Source: a virus | Taxonomy: Duplodnaviria; Caudoviricetes | Reading direction: 5' to 3' (one strand) | IMG/VR virus record: IMGVR_UViG_3300037310_000072 | Location: 1-31,238 of that record | Length of the DNA stretch: 31,238 nt | Shown: positions 173 to 28,858 of the stretch, piece after piece | Position numbering within the stretch: position 1 is the stretch's first letter | Layout of the letters: each line of letters opens with the position of its first letter | Position numbers and translations under genes: made by a program | The notes under the pieces: generated by a model | The model's input: only the letters and a program-made list of their open reading frames with translations | The model's database searches: none | What the model was told of the DNA's origin: nothing

Positions 173-783
173 TTGCTTCCTTGTCGTGCGGCCTTGGTGC
201 GGATGACTTCGAGCATGGCCTGCACTTCTTGCTCGAAGGTCAGCAGCGCTCCCGCGAGCGTTGCAATGTAGGAGTCGTTCCTCGGCACGCGCTCGATGTA
301 GAGGCGATAGGGCTCGGCGGCGCGAGGCTCATATGAGACATACCACCAGTGCGATCGGCCCGTGATCCACAGGTAGCCCTGCACCTGCGCGACGTGCTCT
401 GCCGGCATGCCTTCAAGCCACGTTTGCACGCTGACCGACTCGTCCATCGGGCACTTGACCTCAACACCGCTGTCTCGACCAACCAACCTGTCCGGCGATC
501 CAGCGACGAACGGATAGCGCGGGTGTCGTATGAGGCCGGCGCGTTCGCACACCAAACCAGTCTCAAGCTCGAACGCGGCGACCGCGTAGTCCTCGACCTC
601 TCGCCCCCACGTCAACGACCTGCCGTTAACTTCGTGCATCGGCGTGCCTGAAAGGCGCTCGAAGACAACTTCGCGGGCCAGCTTTTGACGGGCGGCCTTC
701 GTGCCAAGCACGTCTCGAAAACGCGAGCATGTCAGCAGCCCGCTCCTGGCCTGCCTCCACTCGTCAGTGCGCTGCTCAACCAT
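169..783 (-). CDS. YqaJ/lambda-exonuclease family recombination nuclease
   Basis: QRTDEWRQAR...TCSRF, WGREVE, GSPDRLV...EVKCP, QVQG motifs. Start moved to ATG 783 (MVEQRT). Confidence 0.92.
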   Translation of the reverse strand: MVEQRTDEWRQARSGLLTCSRFRDVLGTKAARQKLAREVVFERLSGTPMHEVNGRSLTWGREVEDYAVAAFELETGLVCERAGLIRHPRYPFVAGSPDRLVGRDSGVEVKCPMDESVSVQTWLEGMPAEHVAQVQGYLWITGRSHWWYVSYEPRAAEPYRLYIERVPRNDSYIATLAGALLTFEQEVQAMLEVIRTKAARQGSK

Positions 784-1381
784 GAATCGCCTTCGTTGCC
801 TTGCGGTGCCGATTCCACGCGCAGTGGTACGAGACGCCGAGCGCATCGGCGTATTCCTTCATCGATAGTTCTCGGCCCCCGAAGATGACCCTGACGTTCG
901 TGCGGCGGTTGTTGCTCTGCTCGACGCGCGTACCCCAATAGCAGTTGGTTGGCTCGTAGTCGCCGTTGTTGTCGGAACGTTCTACAGAGTGCTCGCCGCT
1001 TGGGCGCGGCCCCATGTCGGCCAGGAACGCCATGAAGTCGGAGTCCCAGCGAGCGCAAACCTTGATGCCGCGCCCGCCGTAGTTGGCGTAGTCCTTGGAC
1101 CGCTTGTTGTTGCAGCGGGATCGCAGCCCGATCCAAACCATGTACTCCGGCGATCTGCTGTGGCCGTGAGTAGTAAGCGATGCGCGCCCGCGCTCCTTCG
1201 TGATGCAACCGCAAGACATGGTTTTCAGCGCGCGGAGCAGCGTTCCGTTGACGGAGGCAGTGCCGCCGCAATCGCATTGGCAGAGCCAATGCGCGTGTGG
1301 ATTTCCTTCCCTGACCTCTCCGCGGCCAACCACCAAAAGTCGTCCGGAACGAAAACCAATCATGTCTTTTACGCGCGGCAT
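776..1381 (-). CDS. Free-standing HNH-type homing endonuclease
   Basis: WLCQCDCG...SCGC N-terminal module, YGGRGIKVC, SVERSDNNGDYEPTNCYW...QSNNRR nuclease motif. Confidence 0.85.
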   Translation of the reverse strand: MPRVKDMIGFRSGRLLVVGRGEVREGNPHAHWLCQCDCGGTASVNGTLLRALKTMSCGCITKERGRASLTTHGHSRSPEYMVWIGLRSRCNNKRSKDYANYGGRGIKVCARWDSDFMAFLADMGPRPSGEHSVERSDNNGDYEPTNCYWGTRVEQSNNRRTNVRVIFGGRELSMKEYADALGVSYHCAWNRHRKATKAIHG

Positions 1382-7878: not shown

Positions 7879-10305
7879 TCACAGGTCGAGCGCGCGCGGC
7901 GCGCTGGTGGTGGTGGCGGTGGACTCGGCGGCGCTGGCGTTGCGTGCGCGGCCGACGGCCCATTGGCGGATGGCGGTGATGCGCTCGCTCGCGGTCTTGG
8001 CGAGCGGCACGGTGCGCTCGGCGGCCTGTTGCAGATCGGCCGTGAACACAGGGCGTGCGTCATCAGCGAACGCTGCGAACATCGCGTCAGGCACCAGGGC
8101 GGCCAGCTCGGCGCCGGTGAACTCGCGCGTGGCGGCGGCGATCGGCGCCAGGTCGATGCCCTCGGGGCCGATGCCGTGTGCGGTCAGCGCCGCGCGCAGG
8201 ATCGCCTCTCGCTCGGTCGCGTTGGGCAGATCGACAAAGAACACTTCGTCGAAGCGGCCCTTGCGCAGCAGCTCGGGCGGCAGCGCCGACACGTCGTTGG
8301 CGGTCGCCACCACGAACACGTCGCCCGCGCGGTCCTGCATCCACTGGAGCACGGCGCCGAGCGCGTCGGCGCTGGTGCCGCCGTCGGCGGCGCCCTGCGT
8401 GGCGCCGGCCAGGGCCTTCTCGATCTCGTCGAGCCACAGGACGCACGGGGCGACCGTCTCTGCCACCTTGAGCGCCTTGCGGATGTTGCCCTCGGACTCG
8501 CCGACCCACTTCGAGCGCAGCGCGCCCATGTCCAGGCGCAGCAGCGGCATGCCCCATGCGGTCGCCACGGCCTTCGCACTGAGCGACTTGCCGCAGTTGT
8601 GCACGATCGCGCCGCCGTTGACCACGAAATTGGGCAGCGGCTCGGCCATCGTGATGTCGAATGTCTGTCGAATGCCGATGGGCTCAATGCTGGCAACGAG
8701 CGCCGCTCGCGTGTACTGAGTCCCAAAGTTCGCGGCGGCATCAGCACCATGCAGGCGCGCGTGCTCATCGTGCGGAACGACAACGAGGTTGCCAGGGTCG
8801 TCGTTCATCGAGTCCTCATCGGCGTGGTGCACGTCGTACTCGGATGGCAGGTAGGCCAGCGTCGCGGCGCGCGCCTCATCTGACTTCAATGTCTCGATGA
8901 ACGACTCCAAATCCATGCCGTTCATTCGCGCCTCGATGACCAGCCGGGCGCGCGTGGTGCGCTGGTATTCGTACCGCTTGTCTCCGTCGATGACGACCTT
9001 GCGCCATGCGATCGGGTGGTAGCGCAATCCATCGATCACCACGCGCTTGCGGTGGGTGCGCGGCTGCCCGCTGGCCTGCGGCAGCATGCTCCCGCGCACC
9101 AGAATGCTCGAATGGCCTGCTTGCAGCTCCTGCGCTTGCGCCCATGTTCCATCGGCCAGCAGAATCGGATGGTCGCTCGTGCATTCGACTTCGCTGCCGC
9201 ATTCGGTGCGCACGCGCACGCAGGGTTTGTAGCCCGTTGGCATCACCGCCGTGACCTCGTTGTAAACCAGAGCGCCGGTCTGACTGTTCCAGGACTGGAG
9301 GTAAGTCGGCACGTCGGCCGTCCAGGGGCGGGAAGAACTCGCCTGCCCGTTGAACTTGGCGCAGAAAACCTCGATGGGCAGTGATCGCCCGGCTGCCGAT
9401 ACGCGCTTGCCGCGCAGGTACGCGACACGGGTGCCTGCCGCCAAGCACCCAGGCACGCCGACCAGCATCACCCCCTTGGGCGCCGGCAGGCCGTAGGCGC
9501 GCGCCTTGGCCGAGAACGCGGCGCGGCGCTGCATCAGCCAGCCCTTGAGCACTTCCAGCCCGCCGACGGCTGCCAGTCCTGCCGGGTGCGGGTCGAACCA
9601 CTCCAACACGCGCTCGCGCGAGATGACGCGGCGCTTCTCGCTGGCAACCGCGGCAGGATCGATCCGGCGCGCGGTGATGAGCGAGCGCGCGAAGGTGCTC
9701 TGCGCTTCCTCGGCGGTCAGGCCCACAGCGGCGTCGATCGCGGCATCGCGCGTGCCGTTGGGCGCCGCGCTGTCGCGCACGTCCTCGGGCAGCGCCCGCA
9801 CCGCGGCGTCGAGCAGCGCGGCGATCTCGGCGCGGTCGGGCAGCGGCAAGTCAACGACGATCGCATGCCCTTGCAGCTCGGGCGGCACTTCGGCGCTCGG
9901 CGTCACCACGATCATGGCGCGCGCTTGGTCGCGCGGCTTCGATGGCAGATCGCGGCACAGGGAGCGCACCGCGCGCACCACGGTCGGGTCGCGCAGCCAG
10001 GGCGGCAGATCGCGCAGCACGTAGACGCAGCGCTCTGTGCGGTCGCGGATGGCGGCCAGCGCCTGCGCCGGGTCGGTGCAGCGCGAGTCGATCGCCTGTC
10101 CGTCGCCGCGCGTCAGGCCGGTGGCGCAGTCCCACATCGCCACGTCGTAGACGGCCGAAGCGGTGGCCTCGATCAGCACGCGCTCGGCGCGGGCCTCCTC
10201 GCGTGTCACGAGCCAGATCAGCGGGTTGCGGGCGCGCAGCAGCGCGGCGATGTCGGCGGCGCACTTGGCGCCGGCCGCGGCGGTGGTGGCAGCAGCGGCG
10301 CTCAT
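7879..10305 (-). CDS. Ycf46-like AAA+ ATPase, intein-containing
   Basis: VGGLEVLKGWL, Walker A GVPG/CGKS split by the intein, SKWVGESE pore loop, Walker B VLWLDEIEK, ATAN...LPPELLRKGRFDE SRH; degenerate N-terminal AAA-like domain. Confidence 0.92.
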   Translation of the reverse strand: MSAAAATTAAAGAKCAADIAALLRARNPLIWLVTREEARAERVLIEATASAVYDVAMWDCATGLTRGDGQAIDSRCTDPAQALAAIRDRTERCVYVLRDLPPWLRDPTVVRAVRSLCRDLPSKPRDQARAMIVVTPSAEVPPELQGHAIVVDLPLPDRAEIAALLDAAVRALPEDVRDSAAPNGTRDAAIDAAVGLTAEEAQSTFARSLITARRIDPAAVASEKRRVISRERVLEWFDPHPAGLAAVGGLEVLKGWLMQRRAAFSAKARAYGLPAPKGVMLVGVPGCLAAGTRVAYLRGKRVSAAGRSLPIEVFCAKFNGQASSSRPWTADVPTYLQSWNSQTGALVYNEVTAVMPTGYKPCVRVRTECGSEVECTSDHPILLADGTWAQAQELQAGHSSILVRGSMLPQASGQPRTHRKRVVIDGLRYHPIAWRKVVIDGDKRYEYQRTTRARLVIEARMNGMDLESFIETLKSDEARAATLAYLPSEYDVHHADEDSMNDDPGNLVVVPHDEHARLHGADAAANFGTQYTRAALVASIEPIGIRQTFDITMAEPLPNFVVNGGAIVHNCGKSLSAKAVATAWGMPLLRLDMGALRSKWVGESEGNIRKALKVAETVAPCVLWLDEIEKALAGATQGAADGGTSADALGAVLQWMQDRAGDVFVVATANDVSALPPELLRKGRFDEVFFVDLPNATEREAILRAALTAHGIGPEGIDLAPIAAATREFTGAELAALVPDAMFAAFADDARPVFTADLQQAAERTVPLAKTASERITAIRQWAVGRARNASAAESTATTTSAPRALDL
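8596..9447 (-). mobile_element. Intein (284 aa) with HNH endonuclease domain
   Basis: Starts CLAAGT, block B ECTSDHPI, block F FDITM...NFVVNG, ends VHN followed by Cys+1. Internal DVHHADEDSMNDDPGNLVVVPHDEHARLH. Confidence 0.93.
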
Positions 10306-10448
10306 GCGAACCTCCGCACGATCCAGGTCGCCACGGCGCCCAGCAAGACCGCGGCCAGCGCCACCAGCAGCGGGTCGAACGGCAGCGCGTGCGCGCCGGC
10401 CGCATGGAACCGCGCCGCGTGAGCCAGCACCAGGAATTTCGTCGTCAT
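10302..10448 (-). CDS. 48-aa membrane peptide, first gene of the left arm
   Basis: Not in ORF track. MTTKFLVLAHAARFHAAGAHALPFDPLLVALAAVLLGAVATWIVRRFA*; AAGGTGG RBS; stop overlaps the ATPase ATG. Confidence 0.65.
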   Translation of the reverse strand: MTTKFLVLAHAARFHAAGAHALPFDPLLVALAAVLLGAVATWIVRRFA

Positions 10449-10602
10449 CGTGTCCACCTTTTCCGAGGGGCGGTGTGCCCCTCTACAGGTCAGCCGAACA
10501 TACGGCCATGACAGGATTCAACCATGGTTCGCGGCTGTTCGTCAACTACAGTTTCGACCCCAGTTGCGCCGCGCTCGGGAACTGTGGTTGAATACCACTC
10601 CC
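10449..10602. promoter_or_regulatory. Divergent control region with three AAC-N4-GTT operator-like sites
   Basis: AACCATGGTT 10520-10529, AACTACAGTT 10544-10553, AACTGTGGTT 10580-10589; partial GACCCCAGTT 10556-10565. Point of divergence of the two arms. Confidence 0.7.
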
Positions 10603-10797
10603 ATGACCAAGAACGAGGCCATCGGCCTGCTGGGCGGCACCATCAACGCGGCGGCCGAGGCCATCGGCATCACGTACCAGGCGGTGAACAAGTGGCCAGA
10701 CGTGCTGCCGCAGCGGATCGCCGATCGGGTGCAGGCGGCGCTGTGGCGCAAGGCGAACTCGCCGCTGCCGCCAAAGAAGGAGCGCACGGCAGCATGA
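10603..10797 (+). CDS. Cro-like HTH regulator
   Basis: MTKNEAIGLLGGTINAAAEAIGITYQAVNKWPDVLP; no obvious SD (possibly leaderless). Confidence 0.88.
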   Translation: MTKNEAIGLLGGTINAAAEAIGITYQAVNKWPDVLPQRIADRVQAALWRKANSPLPPKKERTAA

Positions 10798-11117
10798 GCA
10801 TTTGCGCCTACTGCGAGCAAGTCATCCCCGCGCGGCCAGGCGAAGGCCCGGCGCGGCGCGCCAAGCGAAAGTGCTGCTCGCGCGCCTGTGGTGCCGCGTG
10901 GGCGCGCTATCGGCTGATGAGCGCCCCGCAACACGTCGATGCGCGCGAACGCTTGGCGGCGCTGTGCTCCAAGGTGCCGCCCTCGGTGCGCGACGGCGGC
11001 GTCATGAAGACGCGCGCGTGGGTCGCTGCCGTGCAGGCTTGCAGCGGCGCTCTCAGGCGCGGATCGGCGGAGACGTGCGAGCGGCTGGCCGAGATGGTGC
11101 GGGAGGCGGCGCGATGA
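10794..11117 (+). CDS. Zinc-finger hypothetical protein
   Basis: CAYC...KCCSRAC; ATGA overlaps; AAGGAG RBS. Confidence 0.7.
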   Translation: MSICAYCEQVIPARPGEGPARRAKRKCCSRACGAAWARYRLMSAPQHVDARERLAALCSKVPPSVRDGGVMKTRAWVAAVQACSGALRRGSAETCERLAEMVREAAR

Positions 11118-11302
11118 CCCAACACCGCCGCGGCCACGCCAACACCTACAAGCCAACGCACGATCGGGGCGTGATCGCTCCGTCGCTGGGCAAGACCTAC
11201 CTCTGCGGCCGGTGCAACACGCCGAAAGAGACGCTGCTCGGTCGCTGGAAGCATCCGGTGCTCGGGTGGTGCTGCGGGGCGTGCAAGGACGCGGCGCGAT
11301 GA
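11114..11302 (+). CDS. Small zinc-ribbon protein
   Basis: CGRC...CGAC; GGAGG RBS; ATGA overlap. Confidence 0.65.
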   Translation: MTQHRRGHANTYKPTHDRGVIAPSLGKTYLCGRCNTPKETLLGRWKHPVLGWCCGACKDAAR

Positions 11303-11343
11303 GCGACAAGACCTTGATCTCCTTCTGGCGCACCCAGCCATGA
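11299..11343 (+). CDS. 14-aa bridging mini-ORF (MSDKTLISFWRTQP)
   Basis: ATGA overlaps with both the upstream stop and the initiator start. Confidence 0.45.
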   Translation: MSDKTLISFWRTQP

Positions 11344-12404
11344 GCACCTCACAGCCGTTGCCTGATCCGATGGTCCCTGCCGAGGTCGATCTGCGCGGGC
11401 TTGAGTACATGCCGCTGTTGGGCGCCAAGCTGTTCGCGAGCGACTTCGACCTGGAGGCCACGGACGCCGAATTCCGGCGCGGCCTGCGCCTGTGGTGGGC
11501 CGCCTGGAACCAGGTGCCGGCCGGCAGCCTGCCCGCTTCGGAGCGCGCCCAGGCCAAGCTCGCAGGCTTTGAGGACGAGACGAGCGCGAGCTGGAAGCGG
11601 GTCAAGCGGCGCGCGCTCGACGGCTTCTTGCTGTGCTCGGACGGCCGGCTGTACCATCCCGTGATCGCCAGCCAGGCCGTGATCGCGTGGGAGAAGCGGC
11701 AAGAGGACCGCGACAGGCGCGCCAACGAGGCCGATCGGCAGCGGCACGTCAGGGCGCAGAGGAGGGAGCTGTTCGAGCAATTGAGGCAGGCCGGGATCAG
11801 GCCAAAGTACGACACGCCGCTGAGCGAGCTGCGGGAACTGGTGGCCCAGCATGCATCGCAACCTGTCACGCCACCTGTCACTGTGACAGCACCTGTGACC
11901 GTCACACCACCAGTCACAGAACCAGTCGCGCAGACAGTACCCGTGACCGTTACGCAGACAGACACGGCTAAGACGGGACGAGACGGGAATGGAATACAAC
12001 AGCCAATACAGGGTAAGCCCGCGCCTTATCAGCACTTACCCTTGGATGCCGAGGCCCAGGCGGGCGCTTTCGACCCCAACCCGGGGCCGATTCCAACCCC
12101 GGCAGGGCAGGCTTGTCGAGCCATGCGGGCCGTCGGAATCACGGCGGTCAACCCGTCCCACCCGGCGCTGATCGCGCTGCTGGAAGCCGGAGCCACCGTG
12201 CCAGAGTTCATCGCCGCAGCGCAGTCTGCGAGGGACAAGCGCGACCCATTCGCCTACGTCCTGGCGACGGTCGCGGGGCAGCGCAAGGACGCTGCGGCGA
12301 TGGCTGCGACGGTGCATCGCGGACCCCTGCCGAACCGTCAGGAGGCCATCGAACGGCGCAACATGGACATCGCGGAGCGATGGGCCGAAGGAGCTGATCC
12401 GTGA
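11340..12404 (+). CDS. Phage replication initiator, DUF1376/YdaU-like (lambda O analogue)
   Basis: DLRGLEYMPL...LWWAAWNQVPAGSLP...LCSDGRLYHPVI; central PVT-repeat linker; position after the cro-like gene. Confidence 0.8.
   Translation: MSTSQPLPDPMVPAEVDLRGLEYMPLLGAKLFASDFDLEATDAEFRRGLRLWWAAWNQVPAGSLPASERAQAKLAGFEDETSASWKRVKRRALDGFLLCSDGRLYHPVIASQAVIAWEKRQEDRDRRANEADRQRHVRAQRRELFEQLRQAGIRPKYDTPLSELRELVAQHASQPVTPPVTVTAPVTVTPPVTEPVAQTVPVTVTQTDTAKTGRDGNGIQQPIQGKPAPYQHLPLDAEAQAGAFDPNPGPIPTPAGQACRAMRAVGITAVNPSHPALIALLEAGATVPEFIAAAQSARDKRDPFAYVLATVAGQRKDAAAMAATVHRGPLPNRQEAIERRNMDIAERWAEGADP
11861..11953. repeat. GTCAC/GTGAC repeat cluster, putative iteron origin
   Basis: Multiple direct and inverted GTCAC copies including palindrome CTGTCAC-T-GTGACAG 11875-11889, followed by an A-richer stretch. 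Confidence 0.6.
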
Positions 12405-12431
12405 CACCACAGCTGCCGGCATGAGGCAAGC

Positions 12432-12496
12432 GCCTAACGCCGGAATTGAGGGGCGAGGCCCGCAGGGCCGAGTCCCTCTCGAATGACCTGTTCGGC
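12432..12496 (-). repeat. attC-like site 1
   Basis: + strand GCCTAAC-GCCGGA-ATTGAGGGG...CCCTCTCGAAT-GACCT-GTTCGGC; 6/5-nt spacers; unpaired base in TCGAA. Confidence 0.8.
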
Positions 12497-12524
12497 TTGG
12501 TGCCGGAGCGAAAGGAACGATGGA

Positions 12525-12968
12525 ATGCTTGCACTGAGTATTCGCCAGCCCTGGGCAAGCCTGATCTTGAAGGGTGGCAAGGACATCGAGAACCGCGACT
12601 GGCCCACAAAGTACCGCGGGCGCATCCTGATCCACGCGGCCAAGGGCATGACCCGCGCCGAGCACGAGGACGCGATTCACTTCGCGGTGCAGGCGATCCA
12701 GGCCGACCCGCGCAACAAGGATGCGAACAGGCGCACCACGCTGCGCGACCTGGGCTTCGACTTCGACGCTCTGCCGCGCGGCGGCATCGTGGGCAGCGTG
12801 GAGATCACCGCATGCGTGGCCGACAGCGCGTCGCCGTGGTTCGTGGGCAAGTACGGCTTCATGCTGCGCGACCCGAAGCCGCTGCCGTTCACGCCGTGGA
12901 AGGGGCAACTCGGCTTCTTCGACGTGCCTGAGGCGGCCCTGACGCAGCCTGCCGAGCTGGCCGCGTGA
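12525..12968 (+). CDS. ASCH domain protein
   Basis: ALSIRQPWASLILKGGKDIENRDWPTKYRGRILIHA...GGIVGSV...KGQLGFF. Confidence 0.92.
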   Translation: MLALSIRQPWASLILKGGKDIENRDWPTKYRGRILIHAAKGMTRAEHEDAIHFAVQAIQADPRNKDANRRTTLRDLGFDFDALPRGGIVGSVEITACVADSASPWFVGKYGFMLRDPKPLPFTPWKGQLGFFDVPEAALTQPAELAA

Positions 12969-12969
12969 A

Positions 12970-12996
12970 GCCGAACGCTGCCGGTAACCGGCCGCC
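12970..12996 (-). repeat. attC-like half site 2 (partner arm missing)
   Basis: GCCGAAC-GCTGCC-GGTAACCGGCCGCC just after the ASCH stop; no matching arm seen before 13395. Confidence 0.55.
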
Positions 12997-13090
12997 GTCA
13001 GGCGGGACCCCTCAGCGACGGGACAAACCAACTTTGTGAGAAGCACTACACCAGCCAAGAGAACGGCCTGCTGCGCGACTGGGGCACGGC

Positions 13091-13222
13091 GTGAGCAATA
13101 CGCAGGCGCTGAGCGAGATCGGCGCTGCGGCGTCGGAATACGTGCACAGCGGGCAAGCCCTGCGGGTGCGCGAGATGACGACCGAGGAAGCGCACCACAT
13201 CGGCTTCGCGCCTGCGACATGA
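13091..13222 (+). CDS. 43-aa hypothetical protein
   Basis: Not in ORF track. MSNTQALSEIGAAASEYVHSGQALRVREMTTEEAHHIGFAPAT; ATGA overlap with the next ORF. Confidence 0.4.
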   Translation: MSNTQALSEIGAAASEYVHSGQALRVREMTTEEAHHIGFAPAT

Positions 13223-13446
13223 TGGAGACCGAGCGCCATCCCACACCCGCGCGCTGGCACGCGCCGCACCCGCAGCAGCCGACGCGCCCGCTGTGCGGCA
13301 CCGTTGGGGAAGACGGCAACCCTACGCACCGAGTTGCGAAGCAGATCGCAGTGACGTGCAGGCGCTGCCTGCGGATGTTGGAGCGCAACAAGACGCCTAA
13401 CGCCGCAGTTGAGCGGCCGGAACGGTCCGCTCGAACTGCCTGTTAG
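13219..13446 (+). CDS. Small zinc-binding protein reading through attC-like site 3
   Basis: WH...PLCG...VTCRRC; stop is the TAG within GTTAGGC. Alternative start at GTG 13036. Confidence 0.55.
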   Translation: MMETERHPTPARWHAPHPQQPTRPLCGTVGEDGNPTHRVAKQIAVTCRRCLRMLERNKTPNAAVERPERSARTAC

Positions 13447-13448
13447 GC
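13395..13448 (-). repeat. attC-like site 3
   Basis: - strand GCCTAAC-AGGCA-GTTCGAGCGGACCG-TTC-CGGCCGCTCAAC-TGCGGC-GTTAGGC: R''/L''/L'/R' layout with two unpaired bases. Confidence 0.9.
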
Positions 13449-13473
13449 CCAACGGTGAACGGAGGCACAGACG

Positions 13474-13623
13474 ATGGCATGCCCAAAGTGCGGTTGCAAG
13501 ACCGTGTACCAGTTCGATGACGAGGACGACCCGCAGGACGACCGGCTGCAACGCTGCGCAGCCTGCGGAGAAGTGTTCGACCTTGACGACCACGCGGAGG
13601 AAGACGATGACGACATGCCCTGA
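13474..13623 (+). CDS. 49-aa acidic zinc-ribbon protein
   Basis: Not in ORF track. MACPKCGCKTVYQFDDEDDPQDDRLQRCAACGEVFDLDDHAEEDDDDMP; GGAGG RBS. Confidence 0.7.
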   Translation: MACPKCGCKTVYQFDDEDDPQDDRLQRCAACGEVFDLDDHAEEDDDDMP

Positions 13624-14038
13624 GTGCAACGACACCGGAGAACGCGACAGCGGAGGAATGCACCCTTGGGGAGAGCCCGTGTACCTACCGTGCGACTGCA
13701 AGGATGCCGAAATAGGCCGACGCTGGCGCGAGGACAACAGCCTGCATAAGTGGTTTCCGATAACCGCTGAGCGGCTGGCGGCGCTGGAGGCCAAGAATGC
13801 AGAGTTGACGCGAGAGGCGCACGAATGGTGGACGGCCTGCGCTGACGCGACGAAGACGCAGGAAGAACTGGCGATGATGGTGCGAATGCTGACCAGCAGC
13901 CTGAAGCGGCATTGGCCGCACGCGCCACAGCCTGGCGACTTGCCAAGCCGCGCGATGGATCTGCTGCGCAGGCACAACCTGATGGGTTCGCCGCTGCGCG
14001 ATGAGAGCAACAACCTTGGCCCGCAACAAGGGGCCTAA
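13607..14038 (+). CDS. Hypothetical protein with N-terminal CxxC...CxC and coiled coil
   Basis: GGAGGA RBS; stop TAA lies within the CCTAAC core of site 4. Confidence 0.7.
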   Translation: MTTCPECNDTGERDSGGMHPWGEPVYLPCDCKDAEIGRRWREDNSLHKWFPITAERLAALEAKNAELTREAHEWWTACADATKTQEELAMMVRMLTSSLKRHWPHAPQPGDLPSRAMDLLRRHNLMGSPLRDESNNLGPQQGA

Positions 14039-14101
14039 CGTTCCGGTTGAGGCGGGGCCGACGGTACTCCGTTGGACCTCGCCTCGAACCGGGGGTTAGG
14101 G
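14033..14101 (-). repeat. attC-like site 4
   Basis: + strand GCCTAAC-GTTCCG-GTTGAGGCGGGGCCGACGG-TACT-CCGTTGGACCTCGCCTCGAAC-CGGGG-GTTAGGG. Confidence 0.88.
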
Positions 14102-14147
14102 CGCTGGTGCCGAAGCGTGACCATGTTTGCGTGTTACAAAATAGTTG

Positions 14148-14175
14148 TTGACGCCGGCGGTTGCTGTGCTACAGT
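14148..14175 (+). promoter_or_regulatory. Sigma70-like promoter inside cassette
   Basis: TTGACG-16 nt-TACAGT with TG extension, in an AT-richer patch. Confidence 0.6.
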
Positions 14176-14205
14176 AACTACATCAACAACGCACCGGAGA
14201 ACAGC

Positions 14206-14334
14206 ATGCTCTACGAACACATCGCCACCTACACCACCCAAACCGAGGCGGATATCTTTGTCCGTTGCTGCCCAAAACTTTCCACCTCATACCGGGTTGG
14301 CCCCGGCCAATACCAAGTGTGGGTGGCACTCTAG
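14206..14334 (+). CDS. 42-aa hypothetical protein
   Basis: Not in ORF track. MLYEHIATYTTQTEADIFVRCCPKLSTSYRVGPGQYQVWVAL; GGAG RBS, downstream of the promoter. Confidence 0.55.
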   Translation: MLYEHIATYTTQTEADIFVRCCPKLSTSYRVGPGQYQVWVAL

Positions 14335-14340
14335 CCACCC

Positions 14341-14358
14341 GGCCCGAAAGGGCCTTGT
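14341..14358 (+). terminator. GNRA hairpin, weak terminator-like
   Basis: GGCCC-GAAA-GGGCC-TTGT right after the stop. Confidence 0.4.
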
Positions 14359-14452
14359 ATCGGGTTCGATCGGTGCGCGTTATCGAATGGGTTGAACGGC
14401 TCCGGCTGGCCCAAGCACCCCGGACAACGTAACCGGGACTTTTGGAGACGCA

Positions 14453-14641
14453 ATGAGCAGCAACGACAAGAACAAAGGCGGGCGCCCGCCAGCACCGCCA
14501 GGCCAGCGCCGGGTAAATGTGCCGCTGCGCCTGCCGGAATGGCTTGTGCAGTGGATGGCAGAGCAGGCCGAGACGCCTGCGGAATTGATCGAAGCCGCAT
14601 TGCTGAAGGCGCACAAGCTGCGCCCGCCTCGTGCGCCCTAA
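14453..14641 (+). CDS. Ribbon-helix-helix DNA-binding protein (BrnA/CopG-like)
   Basis: GGRPP...RRVNVPLRLPEWLVQWM...AELIEAALL; GGAG RBS; stop lies within CCTAAC. Confidence 0.7.
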   Translation: MSSNDKNKGGRPPAPPGQRRVNVPLRLPEWLVQWMAEQAETPAELIEAALLKAHKLRPPRAP

Positions 14642-14660
14642 CAGGTGATATACACACCTC
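14633..14660 (-). other. Terminal simple recombination site (attI-like or secondary site)
   Basis: - strand GTGTATATCACCT-GTTAGGGCGC; core present, no hairpin arm. Confidence 0.55.
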
Positions 14661-14684
14661 ACAAGCTCTGCTAGAGTTCCTCGC

Positions 14685-15002
14685 ATGCCATACCGCCGCA
14701 CCAAGAAATACAGCGCCGAGCGCCTCGCCGCGATGCGTGCCGGCAAAGACCGCGCCTGCATGGAGCGCCCGGCCCCGGACTACCCGCCGGATCTGCCCGA
14801 CCTGCGCATGCGCATCACGATCACGCGGTACGACTACGGAGAAGAAACGCATGTGTTTGAGCTTCGCAAGTCGCGCCGCGTGGATCAGTTCCGCGTGACG
14901 GTGGACGGAAAGCCGCTGCGCGGGCAGATCGGGCTGACACGCATCCTGGACATGCTGCGCAAGGCCACCCCGCGCGCGATCAGCCCGAGGGCAGCATCGT
15001 GA
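14685..15002 (+). CDS. Basic hypothetical protein abutting the array end
   Basis: 105 aa; TG-extended TAGAGT 7 nt before ATG and no SD; GTGA overlap with the next gene. Confidence 0.75.
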   Translation: MPYRRTKKYSAERLAAMRAGKDRACMERPAPDYPPDLPDLRMRITITRYDYGEETHVFELRKSRRVDQFRVTVDGKPLRGQIGLTRILDMLRKATPRAISPRAAS

Positions 15003-15625
15003 CCGACGCCGATCGGAAGCCGTTCGCTGTCCTGCTGTCGCAGGCGCTGGCGTTCTACCGCCAGGACGTGAGCGAGTTCGCGCTCGGCGTTTGGTGGGCC
15101 GCGTGCCAGCCCTTCGACCTGGAGCAAGTGCGCAAGGCGCTCACAGCCCATGCACTCGACGCCGAGCGCGGCCGATTCGCGCCCAAACCAGCCGACATCG
15201 TGCGCGAGCTGCAAGGCACCGTCACCGACCGCTCGCTGGTCGCTTGGGGTAAGGTCTTGGAGGCCATGCGCGTGGTCGGCGCGTACCGCAGCGTGGCCTT
15301 CGACGATGCGGCGATCCACAGCGCGATCGAGGATATCGGCGGATGGGTCGCGATCTGCCGCACCGCGCTCGACGAGCTGCCGCACCTGCAACGCCGCTTC
15401 TGCGAGTCGCATCGCGTGTACTCGCGCCGGCCGGCGGCGACGCATCGGCCTCACCTACCGGGCGAGTTCGAGGCGACCAACGCGCTCAACGGCCGGCGCA
15501 TCGACGCGCCCACGCTGATCGGCGACGAGAGCGCGGCGCGCGCCGTGATGCTGGCCGGCTCGTCCGCGCCGCGCATCGGCATCACGCCCGCCTCGCAGGC
15601 GCTCGCGCTGGAGGCTGCGCGATGA
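14999..15625 (+). CDS. DUF6475-containing replication partner (lambda P/loader position)
   Basis: FAPKPADIV...AWGKVLEAMRVVGAYRSVAFDDAAIHSAIEDIGGWVAIC. Confidence 0.75.
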   Translation: MTDADRKPFAVLLSQALAFYRQDVSEFALGVWWAACQPFDLEQVRKALTAHALDAERGRFAPKPADIVRELQGTVTDRSLVAWGKVLEAMRVVGAYRSVAFDDAAIHSAIEDIGGWVAICRTALDELPHLQRRFCESHRVYSRRPAATHRPHLPGEFEATNALNGRRIDAPTLIGDESAARAVMLAGSSAPRIGITPASQALALEAAR

Positions 15626-18549: not shown

Positions 18550-19227
18550 ATGAGACCCCGCATCTTCAAGACCTACGCCAGCGCCGTGCTGATCTTCGCC
18601 GCCGTGGCGTTCCTCGTCCTGCTGGCGCTGCCGGCGATGGCGACGACCACGCCCGAGCCGCCGAAGCATCCGCCGGCCCACGGGCACCACCACGGCGCGG
18701 CGCAGGCCGCGGCCGACGCCGCAGCCAAGGCCACCAGCTCGGCCACCGCCACCAACACAGCCAGCGGCGGTAGCGTGCAGTCCAGATCGGGCGACCTGTG
18801 GGTGCTGCCGGCGCCGGTGTTCGTGCCGCCGATGGCCGCGCTCCCGTGTCCGGCCGCCCAGGTGGACCAGCAAGCGATCGGACTCGGCTGGAACTTCTTC
18901 AGCCACTCGACCGGCAAGACCGACACGCGCGATTGCACCGCCATCATCGTCATCAACAGCCTGATCGAGCGCTGCCAGTACGGCAGGGCGCAGCAGGCGC
19001 TCGATTTGCTCGCGGTGCGCGCGCTGCCGGGCTTCGAGACCAAGCCAGCGCCGTACCTGGACCTCGAGCCGAGCGCGTGCGCGGCCATCAAGATGCCGGT
19101 GCAGGCGACCGCGGCGCCGGTCAACCTGATCGCGGCCGAGCCGAGGGCATGCGAGCCAGCTCCGAGGCAGGCGGCGGCGAAGGCCAAGAAGCCGGCCAAG
19201 CGCGTCGCCTCGACCTGCAAGAGCTGA
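18550..19227 (+). CDS. Exported or membrane-anchored protein
   Basis: Signal-peptide-like N-terminus (…LALPAMA), Ala/Thr linker, several Cys. Confidence 0.7.
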   Translation: MRPRIFKTYASAVLIFAAVAFLVLLALPAMATTTPEPPKHPPAHGHHHGAAQAAADAAAKATSSATATNTASGGSVQSRSGDLWVLPAPVFVPPMAALPCPAAQVDQQAIGLGWNFFSHSTGKTDTRDCTAIIVINSLIERCQYGRAQQALDLLAVRALPGFETKPAPYLDLEPSACAAIKMPVQATAAPVNLIAAEPRACEPAPRQAAAKAKKPAKRVASTCKS

Positions 19228-28178: not shown

Positions 28179-28858
28179 AGCGACGCGACATCTTCGACGT
28201 TTTCAGGCGGCGCATGCACGACCTGGAGAAGCCGTACCTGTGGTCGGACGATGACCTGTCCGAGTACCTGGACGATGCGCAGCGCGAGGCGGCCGAGCGA
28301 TCGGTGCTGCTGCGAGACTCGCGCACGCCAGAGGTGTGCCAGATCACCGTCGCCGCCAACGTCGCGGCATACGAGCTGGATCACCGCATCATCGAGGTGC
28401 TGCGCGCCAAGCTCGACTTGCAAACCCGCCCGCTGACGCTGACGACGACTGAAGCGCTCGACATCGACTACCCGGGGTGGGAGTCGAAAGAGGCCGATGA
28501 GCCGCAGATGCTGGCGATCGATCGCGAAGGTGATGCCTGGACGGCCATGTTTGTGCCGCCTCCGAGCGCGGCCGACGTGTTGCGCCTGCAAGTGCACCGG
28601 CTGCCGCTCGAACCGACCATCAAGGACGACTGCGAGCCCGAGATTCATGAGCGCCTGCACATCAAGCTGATCGACTGGATGGTCCACCGCGCGTACTTGA
28701 AGGACGACGGCGAGACGCTGGACACCGACAAAGCCGAGAAGGCCGAGAAGGCGTTCGAGATGACGTTTGGCCCCAAGCGCAACATCAAGGACGGCGCGGT
28801 GCACCACGATCAGCAGTTCCCCGTGGTCCGCTCGGCCGACATCGTGGGGGCGCTGTAG
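28175..28858 (+). CDS. Head-tail adaptor protein
   Basis: PYLWSDDDLSEYLDDAQREAA...PEIHERLHIKLIDWMVHRAYLKDD; position in the head operon. Confidence 0.75.
   Translation: MKRRDIFDVFRRRMHDLEKPYLWSDDDLSEYLDDAQREAAERSVLLRDSRTPEVCQITVAANVAAYELDHRIIEVLRAKLDLQTRPLTLTTTEALDIDYPGWESKEADEPQMLAIDREGDAWTAMFVPPPSAADVLRLQVHRLPLEPTIKDDCEPEIHERLHIKLIDWMVHRAYLKDDGETLDTDKAEKAEKAFEMTFGPKRNIKDGAVHHDQQFPVVRSADIVGAL

Follow-up and report, generated by a model that had tools for sequence, protein, structure and literature searches.

According to our analysis, the 31,238-base virus record IMGVR_UViG_3300037310_000072 (hereafter the window, meaning this whole stretch of DNA), a linear fragment of a freshwater phage estimated to be 49% complete, carries an integron-type array in the early operon of the phage at positions 12432-14654. 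Its cargo is reversed: each hairpin precedes a gene on the bottom strand of the attC sites, and cassettes are probably gained and lost at the AA|C crossover point by an integron integrase (IntI) that likely acts in trans, from the host chromosome or from a co-resident phage. Judged from its sequence, the array is real and integron-like, a cluster of attC sites lacking integron-integrases (CALIN), and it is distinct from a canonical cassette array and from a complete integron.

The preliminary description of this stretch, made from the letters alone, had reported three full sites with attC layout on the minus strand, a half site at 12970, a terminal simple site at 14636, and cargo genes on the plus strand, reversed with respect to usual cassettes. 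The layout search re-derived the full sites at 12432-12496 (site 1, inferred crossover after 12437), 13395-13448 (site 2) and 14033-14101 (site 3, whose identical hairpin in L060 stands before a different sequence). Read on the minus strand, which is the attC top strand, each consists of R'', 5 nt, L'' with an extra C, a hairpin, L', 6 nt and GTTRRRY, and the R'' and R' cores (RYYYAAC/GTTRRRY) are complementary at 6-7 of 7 pairs. The plus strand has the bulged G and the layout of the aadA7 bottom strand in Table S3 of Qi 2023, and all cargo genes of the array are indeed on this strand, the attC bottom strand. In a canonical cassette a top-strand gene is followed by its own attC, whereas here the cassette's own hairpin precedes a bottom-strand gene; the slot of an adjoining intI, as in a complete integron, is held by a gene that we call orf105. 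The array fits the CALIN definition of Cury 2016, with at least two attC sites on the same strand within 4 kb and no intI nearby.

To score both strands, as the preliminary description had proposed, a covariance model was built here from 50 of 76 attC sites picked in bacterial loci, with zero viral sites. On this model of only 10 base pairs, with E-values that are rough because of a rough calibration, the minus strand reached 43.3, 49.5 and 31.1 bits at sites 1, 2 and 3 (E 7e-9, 2e-10 and 8e-6), against 19.6 bits for site 2 and 11.8 bits for site 3 on the plus strand, where site 1 was unlisted at E<=1. Among 60 Markov-resampled windows, 47 contained no relaxed site, 12 contained one and a single one contained two; the real window contains four. 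The fourth of these, at 18750, was without model support and was taken as chance, and a strict layout match at 28419-28555 (137 nt) was dropped by later finders and by the model. No Rfam family reaches its gathering score in the window.

The boxes of the array also correspond to each other in the manner expected of cassettes. In integron logic, a cassette that has circularized with crossover at AA|C is predicted to have an R'' box that matches the next box. In the window, the R'' of every full site is complementary to the next downstream box (3/3 cassettes) and not to its own left box. The half site and the terminal site take part in this matching, also where the boxes are of the rarer types GTTCGGC/GCCGAAC and GTTAGGG/CCCTAAC, and both sites are therefore taken as real boundaries that punctuate the array. 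Each cassette unit comprises a hairpin, the gene downstream of it and a closing RYYYAA box. Crossover at G|TT of R' is likewise supported by sequence comparison.

Evidence of cassette movement comes from one public sequencing run that holds the phage and may be the source sample. A variant contig of 1572 nt follows positions 11854-13395 without a mismatch over the 1542-nt flank and then resumes at 14637. The joint omits 1241 bp (638 + 603), from site 2 to the terminal site, which is exactly cassettes C (13401-14038) and D (14039-14641); a second contig in the run contains positions 13420-14666. Read depth in the run is 9.1 in the flanks and 5.6 in the cassette block. Since this form without two cassettes is joined precisely where cassettes would be swapped, reshuffling of the array is likely to be still under way, and the joint may be regarded as good but not final evidence of excision.

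The breakpoints between relatives, a further comparison proposed in the preliminary description, fall at the core as well. L001 and L019 share 99.9-100% identity, and L019 contains an additional 1.7 kb with its right end 2 nt from the crossover point and its left end aligned 48 nt into a similar hairpin. In L024 and L045, a 99.8% identical flank ends at +1 and a 100% identical cassette spans -2 to 0, with an extra cassette between them; the L024 genome (G014), which is 100% complete, gave no match to PF00589 or IntI. In these near-identical pairs, most block ends are no more than 3 nt away from a crossover point. The homology that cassette D shares with L040, L042 and L008 ends at 14642, where a full attC follows. 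In 5 of 10 informative pairs the hairpin moves together with the gene downstream of it, and in none of 9 does it accompany the upstream gene. We also considered the hairpin as a freely separate module; the near-identical pairs keep hairpin and downstream gene together, and this idea was retained only as a slower process. Taken with the model scores and the two-cassette-less variant, these breakpoints bear out the proposal of a phage gene-shuffling platform of reversed attC cassettes.

Reversed polarity is not peculiar to the window. A survey of IMG/VR with one strict pattern gave 96 stretches, or 90 contigs after 6 same-contig loci were dropped. With one vote per contig, 82 were reversed, none was canonical and 8 were undecided. 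At the 229 viral sites, neighbouring genes lay on the bottom strand in 181/184 and 173/175 assignable cases (45 and 54 were unassigned). The same pattern applied to bacteria (132 stretches from approximately 10 of 64 parts, less 11 overlapping loci that included one whole Rhodanobacter array) yielded 121 loci, 46 of them canonical, 9 reversed and 66 undecided. Among 135 adjacent viral site pairs, R'' matched the next box in 91 and its own box in 23, and the discordant pairs divided 72 vs 4, of 106; in 10,000 permutations the next-box count had a mean of 22.6 and a maximum of 37. Spacing of 6/5 or 5/5 with a bulged G was found in 273/333 viral sites. A phage-specific spacer geometry was rejected, as viral and bacterial sites are both mainly 6/5 and 5/5. 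Of 276 viral hairpins, 30 are at least 85% like a bacterial one; none of 230 viral cassette units shares genes with the 115 bacterial units. As a separate observation, several phages (L262-L278; G002, G014, G021, G043) have sites in both divergent early operons, always with bottom-strand genes. We found no paper describing reversed cargo polarity in phages, in searches that did not extend to subscription papers, bioRxiv supplements or the annotation files and figures of Qi in Dryad.

The array ends at the terminal simple site (14636-14654, minus strand), which is likely its attI. This site is conserved, is correctly placed at the array head and is the crossover partner in the 13395-14637 joint. 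On a profile of the 12 bases beyond the core, built from six orf105-linked sites with the window left out and the core columns unscored, it ranks first among 663 AAC positions. Next to it is orf105 (14685-15002, plus strand), which encodes a 105-aa protein of no known family with 115 relatives, is linked to the terminal site and occupies the position of IntI in sister phages. An RYYYAAC-type box stands 32-41 nt before the start in all six close relatives examined, and such a box also precedes 8 more distant ones; a weak 24-residue match in L302 is without it. Reversed arrays lie upstream of orf105 in L375, L377, L378 and L381. Based on this linkage in the sequences, we consider that orf105 belongs to the gene-shuffling platform. 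Its predicted model, a confident one (predicted local distance difference test 89), is a helix, four strands and a helix. The protein has no Pfam family and no Atlas features, Foldseek searches against PDB and viral structures gave nothing at E<=0.001 and the best VIA Z was 4.3, which excludes nothing. Our guess is that orf105 may be a DNA-binding accessory of the platform and not its catalyst.

Of 401 genomes from the order to which G100, a Rhodocyclaceae bin, belongs, 2 contain orf105, and both encode IntI elsewhere. In bacterial genome G311, one contig bears a reversed array linked to orf105, and three IntI genes are located on other contigs. Genome G463 encodes two IntI; canonical cassettes are present there at an orf105-linked site, which suggests that a chromosomal IntI can use such sites. 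Two side observations concern these loci. L381 (G311:C26) resembles a prophage or satellite and carries, besides a reversed array and orf105, genes for a 919-aa primase and a Xer-like integrase, and L382:8355-10180 is a chromosomal orf105 and site followed by cassettes in canonical orientation, including a peroxiredoxin-type gene.

With regard to the integrase, no tyrosine recombinase was found in the linear record, itself estimated to be 49% complete, by matches to PF00589 or IntI, in agreement with the preliminary description. Its designation of the array as integrase-less holds for this array and does not extend to sister phages, which encode their own IntI right behind the terminal site. 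Of 96 distinct records searched, 17 had a PF00589 match, and 15 proteins were tested (L308 and L309 were left out). Two of the 15 (2/96 records) were true IntI; both genes follow a terminal site and have the reading direction of the cassettes. None of the 12 phage tyrosine recombinases of one set reached TIGR02249 (best 50 bits, cut-off 265), and the recombinases of L307 and L310 failed as IntI in a set of five records in which two were IntI. Among array-bearing records at least 90% complete, 9/17 were without a PF00589 match. No IntI match was found in five complete array-bearing phages, no common phage recombinase among 8 complete genomes and the window, and no protein common to the 8 complete phages beyond common phage families.

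A search with one phage IntI returned 62 viral loci. In a tree of 81 sequences, from a search seeded inside the viral clade, 28 viral IntIs formed one clade (support 0.99) that excluded all 37 bacterial IntIs sampled. Reversed arrays lie upstream of 21 of these 28, and the other 7 have no site in the fetched DNA. The phage-clade intI stands directly behind the terminal site, in the slot of orf105 in the window phage, and reads on the bottom strand, which is the regular arrangement, on the usual side of attI with respect to attC polarity. Since sister phages encode their own IntI in this place, a phage could act as helper, as could the host. Cassette units of IntI-less arrays share genes with IntI-clade arrays in 9/230 cases, and IntI scores above the cut-off in 88/201 sampled genomes of the order of G100 (87/200 without the unpublished G127). 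Overall, an IntI acting in trans, from the host or a helper phage, would be the most economical reading. In two other arrays, truncated IntI N-termini stand directly behind the terminal sites (L047:2876-3238, minus strand, 120 aa, 66 bits; L028:3077-3328, plus strand, 83 aa, 61 bits on TIGR02249), and these arrays seem to have lost their integrase. A second phage layout, of inverted-integrase type, was observed in L355, L357, L358, L359 and L371, where a viral IntI is followed by downstream canonical cassettes; such loci (e.g., L355, L358, L371) fall outside the reversed-cassette clade.

In the mechanism that we propose, IntI would fold and cut the plus strand as for any attC, and excised cassettes would insert at the simple site 14636, so that the newest cassette would lie farthest from the phage promoter. 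Cassette genes would be read from the rightward early transcript of the phage or from their own promoter and not from the cassette promoter Pc. The reversal may thus be the way in which the phage lets integron chemistry feed an existing operon. More tentatively, and with considerable reserve, these arrays can be imagined as a mirror-image integron economy of phages: a separate pool of reversed cassettes with built-in translation starts, a phage IntI clade that serves it, and integrase-less "hitcher" platforms in which a conserved simple site and orf105, a small protein of a new family, replace intI and recruit a borrowed integrase, rearranging early genes in living populations.

Several points weigh against gain and loss by an IntI in trans. 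The surveyed contigs are not independent lineages, and gene strands were taken from a crude gene caller made for this analysis. The fit of the terminal site is weak on the profile of eleven distant orf105-type sites (rank 30/663) and poor on an attI profile of twelve IntI-linked phage sites (rank 185/663). Occurrence of IntI in both of the two orf105 hosts is not significant against a base rate of 44%. The excision variant comes from a single run, in which no cassette-circle junction was listed; the short side of its joint has 30 letters, 1 below the bridging threshold of 31, and 6 letters of the joint fit either side, so that a microhomology deletion would look identical. The broken site at 12970 means that non-specific deletions do occur here. 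Some block ends in the near-identical pairs lie 15-48 nt inside similar hairpins, and in the other 5 of the 10 informative pairs, which are more diverged, the hairpin was replaced, which a one-point IntI crossover does not explain. The sole site of Qi 2023 that could be placed as reversed, P12002L attC1, is, in the part of that paper available to us, the one that IntI1 failed to recombine.

Some of these points would also suit a scenario in which the sites are integron relics and modules move without IntI, by homologous recombination of the RecT/RecE type or by slippage at short boxes and hairpins. RecT-like and YqaJ/RecE genes are present in the window, hairpins are swapped in diverged cassette pairs, a non-specific deletion broke the 12970 site and 6 nt are common to both sides of the variant joint. 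We nevertheless consider this scenario unlikely: breakpoints lie at the 6-7 nt core also next to hairpins that are unrelated, the extrahelical bases and the lengths of the spacers are conserved in the 273/333 viral sites mentioned above, and the terminal site has no hairpin homology and is still a crossover partner. Distinctly unlikely, in our assessment, is a two-component system in which orf105 is a required cofactor that steers IntI, or a host recombinase of XerC/D type, to terminal sites of its own class. The conserved box before the start of six of six close and eight distant relatives, the filling of the intI slot, the travelling of the gene with its site between genomic contexts and a site class unlike the attI of IntI-bearing phages would all agree with such a role; however, many arrays end without orf105, the complete phages have no protein in common beyond the usual families, no known DNA-binding fold was matched at the Z given above, and the linkage could be plain co-inheritance of a site and its neighbour. 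Finally, the phage might encode its own IntI or another recombinase in the approximately 50% of the genome outside the record. This half is missing, which counts against a helper in trans as well, and a full IntI does occur in 2 of the 96 records searched; even so, we regard this possibility as improbable, because in those 2 records and in the phage IntI clade the gene is directly behind the terminal site, where the window has orf105, and the five complete array-bearing phages are without an IntI match. We therefore continue to favor cassette exchange by an IntI supplied in trans.

Phage CALINs have been described before. According to the accessible part of Qi 2023 (PMC9892861), 17 CALINs were found in 10,705 genomes, and IntI1 recombined 5/6 phage attC sites; one strict pattern gave 96 IMG/VR stretches in our survey. 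Those CALINs have in common with the present array clustered attC sites, no intI nearby, methyltransferase cargo and proposed use of a bacterial IntI. In contrast, systematic bottom-strand genes, a conserved terminal site with a linked gene and a natural excision variant are not reported in that part of the paper; among its sites placed here, TJE1 is canonical and P12002L attC1 is reversed. The chromosomal integrons of Burkholderiales and Xanthomonadales and class 1 integrons resemble the array in attC anatomy, bulges and crossover point, whereas here the genes are on the bottom strand behind the hairpin, no Pc is needed and the array contains no intI. As far as the consulted parts of Cury 2016 (PMC4889954) and PMC13323075 go, two integron layouts are distinguished by intI relative to attC, not by the cargo strand. 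The inverted-integrase integrons (PMC4889954) are also an orientation variant, with intI on the attC strand; as described in those sections, it is intI that is flipped relative to attC there, whereas the cargo is flipped here and the array is without intI. Reversed cargo is not described in the accessible portions of PMC8876359, PMC13676570 and PMC9176274.

A further parallel is attG insertion (Loot et al., bioRxiv 10.1101/2022.09.11.507474), in which IntI can place cassettes at simple double-stranded sites that lie outside integrons. By analogy, such an insertion is a possible origin of the array; the preprint, to the extent available, gives only a GWT motif without strand bias, while here the site is conserved and gene-linked and the cargo uniformly reversed. 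Orientation relative to replication alters excision rates, as stated in the part of Loot 2017 (PMC5371416) that was accessible, and it is a speculation that reversal could raise them in the phage array.

Integrons have been known from bacteria, where they express their cassettes from Pc, and the reversed form appears to be common and apparently active in uncultured phages. If true, the mosaic structure of early regions in phage genomes would have a site-specific mechanism. The reversed form is also relevant to the possible use of host IntI by phages and to the genesis of cassettes, given that the same gene is found behind different hairpins and that hairpins contain ribosome-binding sites and start codons. 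The window contributes naturally occurring forms with and without two cassettes, and orf105 as a candidate protein of the platform. As an observation on the hairpins themselves, 40 of 276 viral ones (L001-L097 and complete genomes) have a ribosome-binding site and ATG in the loop on the bottom strand, compared with 3/167 in bacteria; some proteins would therefore start with a sequence encoded by the attC arm.

The cassettes differ in content and preservation. Cassette A (12438-12975, 538 bp, plus strand) has its hairpin, then an ASCH-domain gene at 12525-12968 (PF04266) and a GCCGAA closing box. L282, L287 and L289 (3/19 ASCH loci) contain the same gene with this rare box pair and with other neighbours, L285 contains it with another matched box pair, and most other ASCH loci are without a site. 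The half site that follows (12970-12997, minus strand) retains the R' box, the spacer and the first stem arm, its box matches the R'' of site 1, and its closing half was not found; judged from these remains it is an attC broken by deletion. Cassette B (12976-13400, plus strand) is damaged: its shortened hairpin runs directly into what remains of a Dam-type methyltransferase gene (12998-13089, plus strand), 84% identical to L045, in which the gene matches PF05869 (E 1e-23). Cassette C (plus strand) contains a zinc-ribbon gene at 13474-13623 and a gene for 143 aa at 13607-14038, with the stop codon in the closing box. Cassette D (plus strand) consists of a promoter at 14148-14175, a small open reading frame ending at 14334 and a gene for 62 aa at 14453-14641, also with its stop in the closing box. 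In a simple consensus scan of 10200-15100, the promoter of cassette D was the single sigma70-like match, on the plus strand, and no Pc reading the top strand from attI was found. As a side observation, cassette D (14148-14641) thus combines a promoter of its own with a gene for a small basic protein, and its first small open reading frame varies among copies sharing both ends.

The array is located between a phage replication gene (11340-12404, plus strand; phrog_22470, E 6e-49), its upstream flank in the rightward early operon, and a DUF6475 gene (14999-15625, plus strand; PF20081) as the downstream phage flank. The genome layout is of temperate type, with leftward recombination genes, a Cro-like gene further upstream of the array, the replication gene, and rightward terminase, portal and capsid genes. 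Among the 20 loci of closest DUF6475 relatives, 19 had no site in the fetched flank and in L097 the sites are in the other operon, so that these loci offer no comparison of breakpoints. A blastn search of 50,697 isolate phage records with the window array and the L042 array gave only ASCH-gene or short matches, or nothing, and no RNA data were listed as holding the phage. Elsewhere in the window, an HNH endonuclease gene (776-1381, minus strand) adjoins the YqaJ exonuclease gene, and an AAA ATPase gene (7879-10305, minus strand) is split by a likely intein with an HNH domain (HNH_3; Intein_splicing below the Pfam cut-off).

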